Shown: piece after piece, positions 53,834-63,860 of the stretch
Layout: each line of letters starts with the position of its first letter
How positions within the stretch are numbered: the stretch's first letter is position 1
Assembly: GCA_964479005.1 (NCBI GenBank)
Contig: CAYZJA010000001.1
Span: forward strand, 224,001 to 288,000
Reading direction: 5' to 3'
Origin: an uncultured Candidatus Saccharibacteria bacterium
GTDB lineage: Bacteria > Patescibacteriota > Minisyncoccia > UBA6257
Length of the DNA stretch: 64,000 bases
Made by a program: the position numbers and the translations under genes
Notes under the pieces: generated by a model
Told to the model about the DNA's origin: nothing
Database searches by the model: none
The model's input: only the letters and a program-made list of their open reading frames with translations

Positions 53834-54076
53834 CTATCTCTTTTTATAAATTTTACTGCTTCTATGTTCTATGCTTAAAATCTTTATAGAGTCATCTGTT
53901 TTGTAAATAATAATACGCATATCGCCTTTACGAATACGAAAAATATCCTTTCTTCCTTTTAATTTTTTCAAGTCTAAATTGCGAAAGTTATTTCTTTCTA
54001 TCCGAAGAAGAATACTCTTGAGTTTTTGTCTTTCTTTAAACCCTAATTTATTTAATGCTTTCTCAATCTTATCCAT
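53834..54076 (-). CDS. RelE/ParE-family toxin
   Basis: DIFRIRKGDMRIIIYKTDDSIKILSIEHR matches the YRIIY-type RelE/ParE core. Confidence 0.7.
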   Translation of the reverse strand: MDKIEKALNKLGFKERQKLKSILLRIERNNFRNLDLKKLKGRKDIFRIRKGDMRIIIYKTDDSIKILSIEHRSSKIYKKR

Positions 54077-54085
54077 GAAGTATAG

Positions 54086-54298
54086 TTATAGGCGTTGAAG
54101 CAATTCTTTCAGACTAATTCCTCCTTTTTTAATTTTAGTAAAGTCTATCACTTCTTCCCAATACTCTTCGTCAATTGGAGAAATTTTAAATAATGGTTTT
54201 GACTTTTTAAAAACCATAAAAGAGTGCCCTCTTTTAACTTTTTGGGCATATTCTTGCATATTTTCTCTCAAACTTTTAAGATTAATGATATTTTCCAT
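54086..54298 (-). CDS. Cognate antitoxin (Phd/YefM-like)
   Basis: A 70-aa ORF 9 nt upstream of the toxin gene on the same strand. Confidence 0.55.
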   Translation of the reverse strand: MENIINLKSLRENMQEYAQKVKRGHSFMVFKKSKPLFKISPIDEEYWEEVIDFTKIKKGGISLKELLQRL

Positions 54299-57684: not shown

Positions 57685-58002
57685 TCAATTATCTTTGGGA
57701 ATTTTTATTGTCTTTTTCCCTCTTTCCTTTCTCTTTTTTTTTGACTTTCTTCCACTCAATGCCCATTCAAGCCATTCTTTTTTCTCTATTCCAGACTGCC
57801 TGATCATTGTTCTAAGAGTTAATTCTGGATAAGACTTCGCATTTGTATTAAAATTTATTTCTACTATTTTATCATCTCCACTACTAATCCAAACCTTCCA
57901 ATCATCATGAGAACCATCTTTAGATTTAAAAAAACTAAAACCGTGAGATTTTAGAAAATTAATAACATCTTTATATGACCAATTACGAAATCTTCTTGGC
58001 AT
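57685..58002 (-). CDS. HicA-like toxin (YcfA family)
   Basis: KDVINFLKSHGFSF...DGSHDDW and the C-terminal TLRTMIRQSGI parallel the HicA consensus. Confidence 0.55.
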   Translation of the reverse strand: MPRRFRNWSYKDVINFLKSHGFSFFKSKDGSHDDWKVWISSGDDKIVEINFNTNAKSYPELTLRTMIRQSGIEKKEWLEWALSGRKSKKKRKERGKKTIKIPKDN

Positions 58003-58011
58003 AACTTAAAA

Positions 58012-58374
58012 TTAAGCCAAACAACCAACCAAAGCAGGAATGGAGTTAGGGTTGTATTTAAGTTGCTTAGCCGATTCCAACCTGACTCGTGTAAGCTTTT
58101 GTTCTTTAATCTTTTTCTGAAATTCAAAATATTTATCCCAAAACTCTTGGGGTGCATAACGATTTAGTAAATCATCAGAAAGTTGTTTTCTGCAAACAGT
58201 TTTAAGATGAAGAATAGCTGCCTCTTCTACACTTTTCATTACTTCAATTGAGTTGTCACCTTCTTCAATAATATCAAAAGTAAGACAGACTCCAACGAAT
58301 TTATCTCCACTTGAATAACCAAAAAATTCCATTAAACCTCTTCGTTTAGTGTTTTTAGGTCTCAATATTTTCAT
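58012..58374 (-). CDS. HicB-like antitoxin (UPF0150-like)
   Basis: YSSGDKFVGVCLTFDIIEEGDNSIEVMKSVEEAAILHL resembles the HicB N-terminal fold. It sits immediately upstream of the HicA-like gene. Confidence 0.5.
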   Translation of the reverse strand: MKILRPKNTKRRGLMEFFGYSSGDKFVGVCLTFDIIEEGDNSIEVMKSVEEAAILHLKTVCRKQLSDDLLNRYAPQEFWDKYFEFQKKIKEQKLTRVRLESAKQLKYNPNSIPALVGCLA

Positions 58375-58547: not shown

Positions 58548-59789
58548 TTACAAAATGGGATTTTTCTTTTCTAGTAAATCCTTAACTGTGATTAGCCTTA
58601 TTTCTAACTCCTTCTTATTTTTAATCCTTGCTACTTCCTCGTAAGCACCCTTAGTAAAACTAAAAGCTACAATATAACCCTTTTTATAATTTGCCCTTTT
58701 TAGGGCAGTCTCAAAATTATCTATAACATTACGCCCTACTTTATCAGACTGCTTTACCTGTATTCCTGCTTCTTCAGTTAAAACACTCCTTGGGTAATAA
58801 CCATCTAGCCCCATATCCCCAACTTTCTTTCTGCTCGCATTAGCCCTCATTTTGTCTATCACTACCCAGTTTTGAAACTCAAAAGGTTCTAATTTTTTTA
58901 CTTCCTCTATTGTAGTCGGCATACCAATCACTTCATAATCAATACCCTCTATCGTTCCTAAAGTTTTTCCTAATCTTCGTTGCATTATCTTGATTGCTGT
59001 TGGTGAAATATCTATTCCTATCCACCTTCTACCCAATCGTTGAGCTACAGCTACTGTTGTTCCGCAACCACAAAAAGCGTCTAAAACTATATCATTTTTG
59101 TTTGAGGACGCCTCTATTATTCTTTTTAAAAGTGCTTCTGGTTTTTGGGTGGGATAACCTACTCGCTCTTCTGCCATTGGATTTATTACGGGTATATTCC
59201 ATACATCTTCCACCATTTTCCCTAACGGATTACCTTCCCACTTATAGACTTTCTTTTTTCCACCTGGTCTTCTAATAGCGACTTCGTCTTTTAGTTCTCG
59301 GCAGTATTCTTCCTTAAGACTCGGTTCATTATAATTAAAAGTCCAATTATCTCCTTTTGTATAAAAATAAATTGTATCGTGTTTTCTTGGAAACCTTGTT
59401 TTACTTTGTCCGCCGCCCTTATAAGCCCAAATAATCTCATTTCTAAAATTTTCTACCCCAAATATCTCATCTAACATAATTCTTATATGAGCGTTGGCAT
59501 GCCAATCGCAATGTATGTAAAAAGAGCCTGTAGATTTCAATATCTCATACAATGCTTGAACTCTTGGTTTAAGCCAACTAATATAATTTTCTGTTCCGCC
59601 CTCCCATCTATCTTTAAAACTTCTAATCTCCGCCTCATCGCCAAATACAACTTCATACTGTTTATGAGTAAAAAATGGCGGGTCAATATAAATCAGATCT
59701 ATACTCTCTTTAGGAAGTTTAGCTAACTCTTCTAAATTATCGCCGCAAATAAGTTTGTTAATCTGCCAAAGTTTATTCTGATTAGACAT
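58548..59789 (-). CDS. DNA methyltransferase (DPPF-motif N6-adenine/N4-cytosine class) with a ~130-aa C-terminal extension
   Basis: DPPF (motif IV) and FCGCGTT (motif I) are present in beta-class order. The C-terminus carries D...E.K-like residues (GDMGLDGYY...IQVKQ). Confidence 0.8.
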   Translation of the reverse strand: MSNQNKLWQINKLICGDNLEELAKLPKESIDLIYIDPPFFTHKQYEVVFGDEAEIRSFKDRWEGGTENYISWLKPRVQALYEILKSTGSFYIHCDWHANAHIRIMLDEIFGVENFRNEIIWAYKGGGQSKTRFPRKHDTIYFYTKGDNWTFNYNEPSLKEEYCRELKDEVAIRRPGGKKKVYKWEGNPLGKMVEDVWNIPVINPMAEERVGYPTQKPEALLKRIIEASSNKNDIVLDAFCGCGTTVAVAQRLGRRWIGIDISPTAIKIMQRRLGKTLGTIEGIDYEVIGMPTTIEEVKKLEPFEFQNWVVIDKMRANASRKKVGDMGLDGYYPRSVLTEEAGIQVKQSDKVGRNVIDNFETALKRANYKKGYIVAFSFTKGAYEEVARIKNKKELEIRLITVKDLLEKKNPIL

Positions 59790-59794
59790 AGTAG

Positions 59795-59940
59795 GGATGG
59801 GTTTTAATTTTTATGCTTATATTTACTGGCTGGAAACACAAAGCTCCCCGCCAACGACAACCTTTCGGTCGCCCTATACCTTTCGGTATAGACCCATCCC
59901 TGAGCTCTGACGAGGAGCTTAATATCAGGGATGGGTTTTT
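59795..59940 (-). promoter_or_regulatory. Structured leader upstream of the methyltransferase with three AGGGATGGGT sites
   Basis: Two direct copies (59797, 59927) and one inverted copy (59891) of AGGGATGGGT are present. Minus-strand hairpins include CTATACC-GAAA-GGTATAG and a long stem ACCCATCCCTGA/TCAGGGATGGGT. Confidence 0.45.
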
Positions 59941-60134
59941 TATGCCATATCCTATATTAGAACTTAGGCAACTTTGATTATTTAGTTTTTACAATTAAAG
60001 AATAACATAAATTGATAAAAAGGGAAGCAGAATTGTACCCTCGTTAATTATATTAATCAATCACCATTTTAGCTTTATTTAGTCATATTTTATTGCTAAA
60101 ATAGGGTTGAATAAGACATAATTATATTATTTAT

Positions 60135-60968
60135 ATGACTGACAAAAAAATGCAAGGATGGCTCTCAGAGGCTAAAAATCCTAAAATAGAGCAAACAATA
60201 AGACTTCTAAAAATTAATAAAGAATTTTTAAAGGATGTAGCTGTTTTACGAAAAAAATGGCCTAGTTTTATAGAAAAACATAAAACAGCAATAGATAAAA
60301 TTATAATAGAACTAATAAAAATGGCTTATCAAGGATTCTTGAAGAAAGAAAAACCTTCCGATGTCGTTGAAAAAGCAAAAAAAAAGAATTTATTTCGCTC
60401 TGAAGAGCCAACTAAAGAAAATCTCTTTACCGCCAACACTAAATTTAATCAAGATATATTAGATCTATGTGAAAAATACAAACTCTATCCTATTAGTCTT
60501 TGGCGATATAGGGTAGCTATTTTTATTGTAACTAATGATTTTTCTATTTCTAATAAATTAGCAGGAATGGATTTAGCAAAATATTTATCTCCAGAAGAAA
60601 TAAGCCAAATTCCTGAAGATATGAATTTTAGTCTTAAAATCGAAAAAAATAAAGATACCAAGGAACTAGAGTTATTCATTCAAGTATATGAAACTACATC
60701 TTTACGAGATTTGAAAAAATATTGGCATATGGTAAAACATTCTCAAGATAAGCTAAAAAAGGCCAAAAAGATAGACAAAAGATACTATCCTAAAAAAGGT
60801 CTAGAAACTGCAGAAAAGTTATTCACATTAGATAAAACTAAATCAAAGTCTGATTGGGAAAAACATGATGCTATATATGGAGAACCTACTTCTTCTAGTA
60901 AAAAAGACGGGGAAAAAGAAACCAAAAAAACTAAAAATTTAAAAAGAATTAGGTATCGATATAAATAG
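60135..60968 (+). CDS. Hypothetical protein (lysine-rich)
   Basis: A long ORF with no recognised domain. Confidence 0.45.
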   Translation: MTDKKMQGWLSEAKNPKIEQTIRLLKINKEFLKDVAVLRKKWPSFIEKHKTAIDKIIIELIKMAYQGFLKKEKPSDVVEKAKKKNLFRSEEPTKENLFTANTKFNQDILDLCEKYKLYPISLWRYRVAIFIVTNDFSISNKLAGMDLAKYLSPEEISQIPEDMNFSLKIEKNKDTKELELFIQVYETTSLRDLKKYWHMVKHSQDKLKKAKKIDKRYYPKKGLETAEKLFTLDKTKSKSDWEKHDAIYGEPTSSSKKDGEKETKKTKNLKRIRYRYK

Positions 60969-61127
60969 ATTTTTAAATTCGTAATTTGGGCTCATATCTT
61001 GAGACCAGTTTAAATTAGCAATTTTGTATAATAACTCCAGAGATAATCTGGAGTTTTATGTTATTAAGCAAAAAAGCAATTAAGGAATTTAAAACGATCT
61101 ATACCCGAAAATTTCATCAGGATATAG

Positions 61128-61514
61128 ATGACAAAACTGCTCAGGAAATGGCTAAAAGGCTCCTCCTGCTCTTTAAAATTGTCTATAAGCCCCCAACTAA
61201 TAAACAATCAACTAAATATGACTAACGATAAATCTTATAATAATCTTAAAAAATGCCCTCGTTTTGATAGGTGCAATCAAAATTTATGTCCTCTTGATAT
61301 AAGGCTTTCATTAAGAATCGGAGGATCTGCTGAAAAATGTCGCTGGATGAGACCCCCTTCGAAGAAAACTATTCATGGTAAGGTCTTTATATCAGGAGGG
61401 CAGGTTATGCCAGATGGTTTATTGAATTTTGTGCCTGAGAGCAATTTAGAGTGGCTTAATACCCCCTCTAAAAAAAGATGGTTAGAAATTAAAAAAAATG
61501 AAACAAAATCCTAA
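61128..61514 (+). CDS. Hypothetical Cys-containing protein
   Basis: A CPRFDRCNQNLCPLD cluster is present. Confidence 0.4.
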   Translation: MTKLLRKWLKGSSCSLKLSISPQLINNQLNMTNDKSYNNLKKCPRFDRCNQNLCPLDIRLSLRIGGSAEKCRWMRPPSKKTIHGKVFISGGQVMPDGLLNFVPESNLEWLNTPSKKRWLEIKKNETKS

Positions 61515-62019
61515 TACTAAATTGAAGCTTAGACCTTTACGTCTCAGGGGTGTCCCTTTTGCTTGGCAGGATACTAGATTAATCCCAAAAATCCGAGAGC
61601 ATTTTCATAAAGAAAAGCTTACAACTGCCCTTGCTTTATACTTTGTTTTAACAGAACTTGCTAGTATTGAAGGAAAAGGACAAGGAAAACATATAAATTG
61701 TTTAAAGGCATATCTAAAAACAATAGCAGATCGTTGTGGTAAATCGGTATCAACAACCAAAAGATATCTCAAGGATTTTAAAAAATACAAAATTATATCC
61801 TGGAACAATCGTCGTAAAGGATTGATGAATTTATCAAATGAATGGTTATTACTTCATTATTACCAGCCCACTAATGAACGTACCTCTATTCATAATGATA
61901 AACCTGTTATAAAGAATTATATAAAAAGAAGTTTTATTAATAATAAAAGGAATTATAAAAATGATAAAGATAAAGGGTTCGTTCCTATTAAGGAAATCAT
62001 TGGCCGGAAGTATAAATAA
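61498..62019 (+). CDS. Winged-helix DNA-binding protein (replication initiator / replisome organiser-like)
   Basis: LALYFVLTELAS...SVSTTKRYLKDFKKYKIISW resembles HTH regions of plasmid or phage Rep and DnaD-like proteins. Confidence 0.4.
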   Translation: MKQNPNTKLKLRPLRLRGVPFAWQDTRLIPKIREHFHKEKLTTALALYFVLTELASIEGKGQGKHINCLKAYLKTIADRCGKSVSTTKRYLKDFKKYKIISWNNRRKGLMNLSNEWLLLHYYQPTNERTSIHNDKPVIKNYIKRSFINNKRNYKNDKDKGFVPIKEIIGRKYK

Positions 62020-62264: not shown

Positions 62265-63860
62265 ATGGAACAAATAACATCAAAAATTAAATATTTTCTT
62301 TATGCAAGAAAATCATCTGAATCTGAAGATAGACAGGTAGCTTCAATTGATTCACAAATAAAAGAATTAACTGGGGTAGCTAAGAAAGAAAAGCTAAAAA
62401 TCATTGATGTTCTCACTGAATCTCAGTCAGCAAAGGCACCAGGAAGAAGCCAGTTTAATGATATGATCCAGAGAATCTCCAAAGGAGAAGCCCAGGGAAT
62501 TTTATGTTGGAAGCTGGATAGATTAGCCAGAAACCCTATCGATGGCGGAAATATCATGTGGTTACTTCAGAGTAATACAATAAAACATATCAAAACATAC
62601 AATAGGGATTATTATCCTACTGATAATGTTTTGATGATGAGTGTAGAATTTGGCATGGCAAATCAGTTTATAAGAGATCTGAGTGAAAATACAAAGAGAG
62701 GGCTAAGAGCAAAGGCAGAAAAAGGATGGTATCCTACCTATGCCTCTTTAGGTTATATGCATAATCCTTTAAAAAGAAAAGGAGAAAAAGAAATTATTAA
62801 AGACCCGGAAAGGTTTGATCTTATAAGAAAGATATTTGATTTAATGCTTACTGGTTGCTATACACCGCCTAAAATTTTAAAAATCGCTACTGAGAAATGG
62901 GGATTAAAAAATAAGCAAGGAGGAAAAGTTGCCAGAAGTACTGTTTATAGAATACTAACTGATCCATTTTATTATGGTCAATTTGAATATCCAAAAGAAA
63001 GTGGAAATTGGTATAAGGGCAAACATAAACTTATGATAACTCTAGAAGAATATGACAAAATTCAAATTTTACTTGGGAGAAAAGGTAAACCTCGATCTAA
63101 AACGCATACTTTCGCTTTTACCGGAATGATTAGATGTAGCGAATGCGAAGCAATGATTACAGCCGAAGAAAAAATTAAAATACAAAAAAACGGAAATATT
63201 CATAAATATATTTATTATCATTGCACCAAGAAAAAAGATTCTCATTGCTCCCAAAAATCTATAGAACAAAAAGAATTAGAAAAACAAATCCTGGATATTT
63301 TGGGTGGAATTGAAATTCCTCCAGAATTTCATCAATGGGCAATGAAGTGGATACAAATTGAAAATAAAAAAGAAAGTAAAGCAAGGAACCAAATTATAGT
63401 AAACCATCAAGAAAGCTATAAAAAATGTTTAAAGAGAATTGATAATCTTATTGATATGAGATCTGCTGAGGATATAACGAAAAAAGAATTTCTGAGAAAA
63501 AAATCGGAGTTAAGTCAGGAAAAGATTCGATTAGAAGAATTACTCGCGGATACAGGAAACAGAATTAATAAACAATTAGAGAAAGCTGAGGAAGCATTTT
63601 TATTTGCTGAAAAAGCTAAAGAAAGATTTGAAAATGGAGACATCAAAGACAAAAAAGAAATTCTAACAGCCCTAGGTTCGAACCTCATTTTAAAAGATAA
63701 AAAGCTAAGTATAACAATACAAAAACCACTTTTCCTTATTGAAAAAGTGGCCAAACAGGTTAAAGCAATTAATCAAAGGTTAGAACCTCTGAAAAACCGC
63801 ATAACAAATAACGAATTGGAGGAAATCTATCTTCAAAATCCTACGTTGCTCCGCGGGTAG
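62265..63860 (+). CDS. Large serine recombinase (integrase)
   Basis: The N-terminal resolvase catalytic motif YARKSSESEDRQVASIDSQ is present. A recombinase domain, a zinc ribbon CSECEA...YYHCTKKKDSHC and a C-terminal coiled coil follow. Confidence 0.85.
   Translation: MEQITSKIKYFLYARKSSESEDRQVASIDSQIKELTGVAKKEKLKIIDVLTESQSAKAPGRSQFNDMIQRISKGEAQGILCWKLDRLARNPIDGGNIMWLLQSNTIKHIKTYNRDYYPTDNVLMMSVEFGMANQFIRDLSENTKRGLRAKAEKGWYPTYASLGYMHNPLKRKGEKEIIKDPERFDLIRKIFDLMLTGCYTPPKILKIATEKWGLKNKQGGKVARSTVYRILTDPFYYGQFEYPKESGNWYKGKHKLMITLEEYDKIQILLGRKGKPRSKTHTFAFTGMIRCSECEAMITAEEKIKIQKNGNIHKYIYYHCTKKKDSHCSQKSIEQKELEKQILDILGGIEIPPEFHQWAMKWIQIENKKESKARNQIIVNHQESYKKCLKRIDNLIDMRSAEDITKKEFLRKKSELSQEKIRLEELLADTGNRINKQLEKAEEAFLFAEKAKERFENGDIKDKKEILTALGSNLILKDKKLSITIQKPLFLIEKVAKQVKAINQRLEPLKNRITNNELEEIYLQNPTLLRG

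Follow-up and report, generated by a model that had tools for sequence, protein, structure and literature searches.

What does a long, structured leader do in front of a DNA methyltransferase gene, and what is the role of a short sequence that this leader carries three times? The question is raised by a 64,000-nucleotide (nt) stretch of DNA (hereafter, the window; positions 224,001 to 288,000 of contig CAYZJA010000001.1) from an uncultured Candidatus Saccharibacteria bacterium, in which a minus-strand gene with its ATG at 59789 encodes a DNA methyltransferase fused to an Mrr-like domain. The first-pass annotation of this locus, made without database searches, had described a solitary methyltransferase with an extra C-terminal domain, preceded by a leader that might be a C-protein-style operator, a recombinase site or a small RNA (sRNA). 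What it had observed in the sequence, that is the open reading frame (ORF), the repeats, the GAAA hairpins and a segment that does not form a ribozyme, was confirmed throughout. Among its options for the leader the sRNA came closest, as the leader is a LOOT RNA, a family catalogued in Rfam, whereas the operator and the recombinase site do not agree with our results. We think that LOOT probably serves as a bistable switch that acts in cis on the translation of the methyltransferase-Mrr gene.

A scan against Rfam revealed a full-length match of the leader to LOOT RNA (RF03000; model positions 1-121 of 121) with 72.1 bits, well above the gathering score of 46.4. The LOOT motif originates from the screen of Weinberg et al. 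2017 (PMC5737381). No description of a LOOT function was found in the literature searched, which did not include the original supplementary description, and the one other paper that mentions LOOT RNA there deals with covariation methods. The two GAAA hairpins noticed earlier on the minus strand are the LOOT helices P4 and P5. The fold is specific to the methyltransferase strand, with -69.1 kcal/mol (z -5.7) for the minus strand as compared to -57.6 kcal/mol (z -3.5) for the plus strand. When 16 leaders were aligned, 95.5% of the fold was paired, a value that comes from an alignment fitted to the model and therefore favours structure, 27 of 40 pairs were changed on both sides and none of 500 shuffles equalled this result. 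In the long stem P3, which is formed by a 5' arm (X) and a 3' arm (X'), compensatory changes were found for 10 of 12 pairs. The outer 12 base pairs (bp) of P3 are present; where the Rfam consensus has an inner stem of 8 bp, there is instead a loop of 21 nt (L) that contains only a 4-bp mini-helix. Neither a transfer RNA nor a transfer-messenger RNA was detected at the leader site. On the plus strand (59892-59942), the complement of P3 together with the complement of an A-rich linker makes up a 12-bp hairpin followed by TTTTTT. For antisense transcripts of the methyltransferase gene this could serve as a terminator-like element, and it was not flagged by the scan because its loop amounts to 21 nt.

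The internal loop of P1/P2 is made of two strands (59968..59963 and 59949..59945) that match the classical 11-nt receptor for GAAA tetraloops, the sequence of which is CCUAAG...UAUGG (PMC11381326), and a receptor sequence and a GAAA loop thus occur within one RNA. CCUAA is retained in all 22 leaders and the GAAA loop of P4 in 21 of them. The loop of P5 is less constrained, being mostly GAAA with GUAA, GCAA, GUGA and one AAAA among the relatives. Docking of the P4 loop into the CCUAAG/UAUGG receptor is therefore plausible as judged from these sequences. In a single locus (L300:1313-1465; loci are designated by L and a number), P4 has UUCG in place of GAAA and the receptor strand reads UAGGG in place of UAUGG. 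This double loss, although a single case, is consistent with a tetraloop-receptor contact.

In order to see how constant the leader is, loci with methyltransferase homologues were collected from genome and metagenome collections and by exact-protein look-ups, and LOOT was detected in them with nhmmer, with two covariance models of our own (R1 and R2) and with Rfam. In 22 distinct loci (the window and 21 others), the methyltransferases of which are 67-84% identical, LOOT immediately precedes the gene and has the same orientation. All 15 relatives tested passed the Rfam threshold and 7 further ones were recognized by our own models. In every case LOOT lies 25-50 nt upstream of the ATG on the gene strand. 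Where the methyltransferase was a more distant relative (30-64% identity), no LOOT preceded it according to Rfam or our own models. These methyltransferase genes, then, often have a LOOT, which does not imply the converse, that every LOOT accompanies such a gene. Just upstream of P1 there is an AT-rich, promoter-like block, which is conserved as TTTATGTTATTCTTTAATTGTAAAAAYTAAATA, or as TTAACAATTAAA / TTTACAATTAAAT in other loci (it was seen in the window, in L290 as a variant, in L294, in L295 and in the A2 alignment) and which presumably acts as a promoter. A scan of the window leader revealed no intrinsic terminator in the interval from LOOT to the ATG. With a promoter-like block on its 5' side and no terminator behind it, LOOT therefore appears to form the 5' end of the methyltransferase messenger RNA (mRNA). 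LOOT was also looked for in mobile DNA. Within viral contigs, a loose pattern gave at least 120 matches, none of them LOOT according to model R2, a 19-base pattern gave six matches, none of them LOOT according to nhmmer or R2, and a 24-base pattern gave none; a comparison of LOOT DNA with phage and plasmid records also gave zero matches.

The sequence AGGGATGGGT occurs exactly three times in the 64-kb window, always in the leader, at 59793-59802 (+), 59892-59901 (-) and 59927-59936 (+). As had been reported before, two copies are direct (4-13 and 138-147 nt upstream of the ATG) and one is inverted (103-112 nt upstream). A chance estimate that counts one-mismatch matches anywhere in the window has a mean of about 2. 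Three exact copies inside 150 bp are not due to chance, and the copies co-vary in relatives. Two of the copies are the arms X and X' of P3. The third (X2) is a second copy of the 5' arm, lies beyond the Rfam LOOT model and sits beside the start codon. What the first-pass annotation had not recognized is that the 3' arm of a LOOT stem can pair with this copy instead, and that the copy is placed at the start codon. The P3 arms are wholly different among loci (CCCAUCCCUGA, CCGUUCAGAGU, CCUACCACAGG, UCCACUGCGACA, CCGUGCAAGGU, ACCUCUGCGAGA, CCCGCUACAGG, CCUCAGCGAC), and in 19 of the 22 leaders the 10-12 nt that end 0-3 nt before the ATG duplicate the respective 5' arm and are therefore complementary to X'. 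Accordingly, an uninterrupted helix of 10 or more pairs between X' and the ATG-abutting segment is possible in these 19 of 22 leaders, which represent 12 matched arm sequences. The first 20 leaders contain 12 arm types, and when X' was permuted among these, a match of 10 pairs or more was obtained 1.2 times on average and six times at most, as compared to 10 observed; none of 20,000 permutations gave 10 matches (P<5e-5). Even a single C-to-U difference between L294 and L123 is present in X, X' and X2 alike.

A second exchange of partners involves the loop of P3. L (UAUUAAGCUCCUCGUCAG) is complementary to a segment L' (CUGGCGGGGAGCUUUAUGU) located directly 3' of the Rfam model, and for each of 16 leaders the energy calculated for the L:L' duplex lies between -20 and -28 kcal/mol. 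Pairing between L and L' is kept to 98.4%, and 4 of the pairs show compensatory changes, which are seen in L121, L122 and L227. Furthermore, L123, L294 and L301 possess an entirely different L and L', which are nevertheless complementary to each other. Several of the L:L' pairs are conserved G-U wobbles and therefore mark the RNA strand. The 4-bp mini-helix within L is disrupted in L121 and L166, whereas L:L' is intact in L121 and has one mismatch in L166. The 5' half of the segment that contains L' can pair with L or with its own 3' half. In the latter case, L' folds onto GCCAG to form a hairpin (P6), for which helix 6 of the 16-leader analysis provides some covariation support. Since L is enclosed in the P3 loop and is directly followed by X', a full L:L' duplex would be sterically incompatible with a closed P3. 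Mutually exclusive helices that include the translation start, as are characteristic of an expression platform, are thus present in this leader: X:X' versus X':X2, and P6 versus L:L'.

We propose that the leader, as the 5' untranslated region of the methyltransferase-Mrr mRNA, adopts two alternative folds and acts in cis. In fold A, the catalogued LOOT fold, P3 would be closed and P6 formed, and the structure would probably be locked by docking of the P4 loop into the P1/P2 receptor. X2 beside the start codon would then be single-stranded and the gene translatable, so that fold A would represent the ON state. In fold B, L would pair with L' and the freed X' with X2, giving a G+C-rich helix of 10-12 bp that ends 0-3 nt before the AUG and that would block initiation. 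Such a helix should shut off translation because initiation in this genome relies on an open, A/U-rich start and not on a Shine-Dalgarno sequence. In fact, the genome (about 30% G+C; the window is part of a metagenomic contig of 551,616 bp) is poor in Shine-Dalgarno sequences and has A/T-rich start regions, and GGAG, GAGG or AGGA is encountered within 20 nt upstream of the start for only 4 of the 52 window ORFs of at least 150 amino acids. Nearest-neighbour energies amount to -69.9 kcal/mol for the fold with P3 closed and to -68.6 kcal/mol when X':X2 is forced, and the system is therefore close to bistable. The balance might be shifted by a small ligand, by tertiary folding that depends on Mg2+, by the enzyme itself through feedback or by a purely kinetic window during transcription; the gene context of an S-adenosylmethionine-dependent enzyme is no more than a hint toward a ligand.

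Several points weigh against such a switch. It is derived from sequences and computed folds. With both of its helices formed, fold B is a pseudoknot, and its stability was estimated only from its parts. P3 is local and the first helix to form during transcription, and therefore something must open it. LOOT is absent, according to Rfam or our own models, from nine methyltransferase relatives that are equally close, and all LOOT copies were found via methyltransferase searches, which sample LOOT at such genes. Also, L205, L214 and L122 lack a matching X2 although their genes are intact, and therefore the switch is dispensable or those contigs are chimeric. X2 is absent from L122. L205 (2326-2512) and L214 (79-274) have common P3 arms (CCTTCGCAGG) and start-proximal copies from other lineages, the X2 of L205 being of the L204 type, with L205 identical to L204 from P6 onward, and that of L214 being of the L295/L300 type. 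These two loci are mosaics: they either recombined in nature, with a disabled switch as the result, or are chimeras of the assembly. Finally, Rfam types LOOT as "Gene; sRNA".

The Rfam type, together with the compact and self-contained fold of the LOOT core, would suit an independent sRNA that acts in trans and merely happens to lie upstream of the gene, X2 being then a target of X' in the mRNA or devoid of function. We consider this quite unlikely, as LOOT keeps the same position and strand in all 22 loci, the conserved L'/P6 extension continues toward the gene, no terminator separates LOOT from the ATG in the window, the promoter-like block is located directly 5' of LOOT, and X' would be locked in a 12-bp stem. 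A role at the DNA level was suggested by two direct copies and one inverted copy in a promoter-proximal region, which might be C-protein-like operators, sites of the methyltransferase itself (autoregulation by methylation), recombinase sites or target duplications, and by a serine recombinase gene 2.3 kb away (L300 has one beside LOOT). We regard such a role as highly improbable. A C-protein operator can be discarded since no helix-turn-helix or C gene is conserved nearby: no helix-turn-helix gene flanks the window leader, L291 alone has one, no partner gene is conserved, and the repeats co-vary as RNA partners. The arms are not target sites of the methyltransferase because target-recognition cassettes of the enzyme and arm types assort independently, one cassette being combined with five or six different arm types and, conversely, one of the arm types with five cassettes. 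Most loci have no recombinase nearby, and the arms differ, changing in step as RNA partners, among loci with homologous flanks on both sides; this does not agree with a recombinase site and rules out a target-site duplication. In addition, an RNA on the gene strand is indicated by the strand asymmetry of the fold and by G-U pairs, which occur in P2, P4, P5, P6 and L:L' but not in P3. As for a ribozyme, the earlier verdict that no hammerhead core is completed was correct. The plus-strand sequence CTGACGAG is the complement of a conserved P3-loop sequence (CUCGUCAG), CUGACGAG is the complement of loop L, a CUGANGA...GAAA core with three stems is not formed, and an Rfam scan of 59000-60800 on both strands gave only LOOT and noise at E<=10, without any ribozyme family.

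It might also be that the alternative pairing is real and that it governs mRNA stability, 5' processing or the coupling to a short upstream ORF starting in L', an explanation that we judge to be unlikely. The candidate start of such an ORF is GGGGAG-N4-AUG/GUG inside L', with a stop just before X2. About 14 of 20 leaders have an AUG, GUG or UUG after the Shine-Dalgarno-like GGGGAG, and about half of the leaders have a UAA 2-4 nt before X2. On the other hand, the remaining leaders have AUA, ACG or CUG at the start position, U-A or U-G pairing in L:L' accounts just as well for the A/G variation at this site, the genome barely uses Shine-Dalgarno sequences and the peptide is not conserved. An upstream ORF is thus possible but not convincingly supported. 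In the window, the possible ORF has 11 codons (59838-59803 on the minus strand; GUG UUU CCA GCC AGU AAA UAU AAG CAU AAA AAU UAA), begins 4 nt after GGGGAG and ends 1 nt before X2. We therefore retain the translational switch as the preferred explanation for the leader. A more far-reaching form of it, which we put forward only tentatively and hold to be doubtful, is that LOOT constitutes the sensor domain of an unrecognised class of cis-regulatory RNAs, be it a riboswitch for a ligand or Mg2+ or a site of enzyme feedback, which would gate methyltransferase-nuclease genes on mobile DNA of Patescibacteria-like bacteria through the double strand exchange from P3/P6 to L:L' and X':X2.

Coordinates of the leader elements and of the downstream gene and its protein domains are given for the window in Table 1.

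Table 1. Features of the LOOT leader and the methyltransferase-Mrr gene (window coordinates).
Feature	Position	Strand	Basis or remark
Promoter-like block (TTTATGTTATTCTTTAATTGTAAAAACTAAATA), putative	59977..60011	-	ends ~10 nt before P1
LOOT RNA core, P1-P5 as in Rfam	59856..59970	-	RF03000
P1/P2 with internal loop CCUAAG...UAUGG	59943..59970	-	read from sequence and fold
X, 5' arm of P3 (ACCCAUCCCUGA)	59925..59936	-	Rfam fold, covariation
L, P3 loop (UAUUAAGCUCCUCGUCAGAGC)	59904..59924	-	complementary to L'
X', 3' arm of P3 (UCAGGGAUGGGU)	59892..59903	-	pairs with either X or X2
P4 hairpin CUAUACC-GAAA-GGUAUAG, GAAA tetraloop	59891..59874	-	fold
P5 hairpin GGCGACC-GAAA-GGUUGUC, GNRA tetraloop	59873..59856	-	fold
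L' and P6 hairpin (UUGGCGGGGAGCUUUGUGUUUCCAGCCA)	59827..59854	-	outside Rfam model; covariation
X2, second copy of P3 5' arm (ACCCAUCCCU)	59793..59802	-	3 nt before AUG
Methyltransferase-Mrr fusion gene, 413 amino acids	58548..59789	-	ORF and Pfam N6_N4_Mtase and Mrr_cat
Beta-class N6/N4 methyltransferase domain, residues 30-270	58980..59702	-	PF01555
Variable target-recognition region, ~residues 122-200	59190..59426	-	identity drop among orthologues
C-terminal Mrr_cat / PD-(D/E)xK domain, residues 299-407	58569..58895	-	PF04471

The protein encoded downstream of the leader belongs to the beta class of N6/N4 methyltransferases, as judged from a Pfam match to N6_N4_Mtase (E 1e-56; 192.9 bits versus a cutoff of 26.7) and from an order in which motif IV (DPPF within IYIDPPFF; residues 36-39) precedes motif I of the FxGxG type (FCGCGT; residues 239-244). 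D36-P-P-F and F239-C-G-C-G-T are invariant among the homologues aligned, and the closest solved relatives of this domain are CcrM, M.MboIIA and M.RsrI (E 1e-21 to 1e-26). A REBASE-derived PADLOC model for Type II methyltransferases spans residues 9-375. Among leader-bearing orthologues, identity drops to 27-47% in the variable region, as compared to 67-86% over the remaining protein, and this region occupies the usual target-recognition position in beta-class enzymes. At least 4 or 5 unrelated cassettes are found there (L121-L295), which suggests that the target specificity of these methyltransferases is frequently swapped. Across the orthologues, these cassettes are reshuffled independently of the leader type.

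The extra C-terminal domain, for which a PD-(D/E)xK-like spacing of residues had been noted, matches Mrr_cat in Pfam with 36.1 bits (cutoff 21), contains the acidic-...-(E/Q)xK residues and is the best-conserved portion of the protein, above the variable target-recognition region. PFEFQNW, D325-x-G-x-D329-G, Q344-V-K346, GRN..DNF and AFSF are invariant in it down to 47% identity, and D325, D329 and Q344-V-K346 in particular are unchanged in 19 homologues over that range. An AlphaFold model of the domain is confident (predicted local distance difference test, pLDDT, 90). Its structural matches are weak (all E>=1e-3); FokI and EndoMS are lower in the list, and on top of it are N-terminal domains of RPB5, a domain classed as a PD-(D/E)XK fold (PMC3424549). 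A profile search against the Protein Data Bank gave a sole, weak hit to the nuclease region of LlaBIII (E 0.5). By these sequence features, the extra domain is an Mrr-type nuclease-like domain and not a target-recognition domain, and cleavage can at most be predicted for it. To call the methyltransferase solitary is misleading because an Mrr-type nuclease-like domain, conserved among homologues, is fused to it. The two-domain architecture is abundant, with more than 8000 homologue matches, nearly all of them with both Pfam domains and many of them from Patescibacteria.

As had been stated before, no recognisable restriction enzyme is located beside the methyltransferase gene of the window, the neighbours of which are a weak HicA-like pair and ORFs that could not be annotated. 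The search for a conserved partner restriction enzyme yielded only a divergent ORF of 430-606 amino acids in 5 of 16 clustered loci, which has no Pfam, NCBIfam or PADLOC match and is absent from the window. More broadly, a divergent ORF of about 300-600 amino acids recurs on the opposite strand upstream of LOOT in L123, L138, L204, L205, L215, L291, L294 and L301, with no match to Pfam, NCBIfam or PADLOC where checked, and beyond it a DUF5659 gene is found in L123, L204, L205, L291, L294 and L301. In its place, the window has an unrelated ORF of 277 amino acids (60135-60968). Directly downstream of the methyltransferase gene there are two small genes (57685-58374, minus strand), which may form a toxin-antitoxin pair, one of them having a weak match to HicA_toxin (E 6e-4, under the Pfam cutoff). 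On the other side, a large serine recombinase with Resolvase, Recombinase and Zn_ribbon_recom domains is encoded at 62265-63860 on the plus strand, small ORFs that could not be annotated lie between it and LOOT (60135-62019), and in L300 a serine recombinase (1-1274) is found immediately upstream of LOOT. The methyltransferase module is probably carried on integrative elements. Farther away in the window, two genes of the uracil-DNA glycosylase family (PF03167; 54411-55007 and 53092-53772, minus strand) occur less than 2 kb apart, and a pair of small ORFs between them (53834-54298) resembles a toxin-antitoxin pair, with no Pfam match on record.

How does this leader compare with known systems? 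With LOOT as catalogued in Rfam it has in common the full-length match, the P1-P5 architecture, two tetraloop hairpins and covariation in relatives. It differs from the catalogued form in that distal P3 lacks the consensus 8-bp stem (4 mismatched pairs) and that the conserved loop has its pairing partner 3' of the modelled region. The Rfam entry, which describes an sRNA, includes neither the L'/P6 extension nor X2 beside the start nor the constantly associated methyltransferase gene. Translational riboswitches with bistable expression platforms are known, for example the adenine 'add' riboswitch. There, as proposed here, a structured 5' domain lends a strand to a helix that covers the start, and the two folds are similar in energy; unlike in 'add', no ligand is known and no pocket is obvious for LOOT, there is no Shine-Dalgarno sequence, and two strand exchanges are involved instead of one. 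Fold-back inhibition has been described for the IS10 transposase mRNA, for hok mRNA with its tac and fbi elements, and for the maturation gene of phage MS2. In these cases too, competing leader segments open the start of a potentially harmful gene in only one fold. LOOT has no sequence relationship to them and no known antisense partner, and its competing fold would be an elaborate RNA with tertiary structure.

On the protein side, the two halves resemble CcrM, M.MboIIA and M.RsrI on the one hand, and Mrr-type PD-(D/E)xK nucleases with a D...D...QxK arrangement on the other. In contrast to both groups, the sequence predicts a single polypeptide with the nuclease-like domain at the C-terminus. 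Classical Type IIG/IIC fusions combine an N-terminal nuclease with a gamma-class methyltransferase, and we know of no characterised member with the present arrangement. The methyltransferase-Mrr fusion has thousands of members and is uncharacterised. As in C-protein-controlled restriction-modification systems, a restriction-modification-type gene on mobile DNA would be regulated. In the present case, however, there is neither a C gene nor a C-box, and the repeats co-vary as RNA helices.

Neither the RNA family (RF03000) nor the two protein domains are new. What appears to be new, when compared to the Rfam entry and the literature searched, is the constant association of LOOT with the gene, its 3' extension (L', P6 and X2) and a masking of the start that is backed by covariation; the original LOOT supplement lay outside that search and may hold part of this. 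Many structured RNAs known from metagenomic catalogues are orphans, and LOOT, which is one of these, is tied here to one gene family and one strand. A partner that masks the start codon and co-evolves with a LOOT stem turns an "unknown sRNA" into a testable hypothesis. Since the host lineage has small genomes and a translation poor in Shine-Dalgarno sequences, mRNA structure is expected to be the main control of initiation. Restriction-modification-type genes are usually controlled by proteins, either C-proteins or the methyltransferase itself; if the proposed switch is true, the LOOT leader would provide RNA-based control of a gene of this type.

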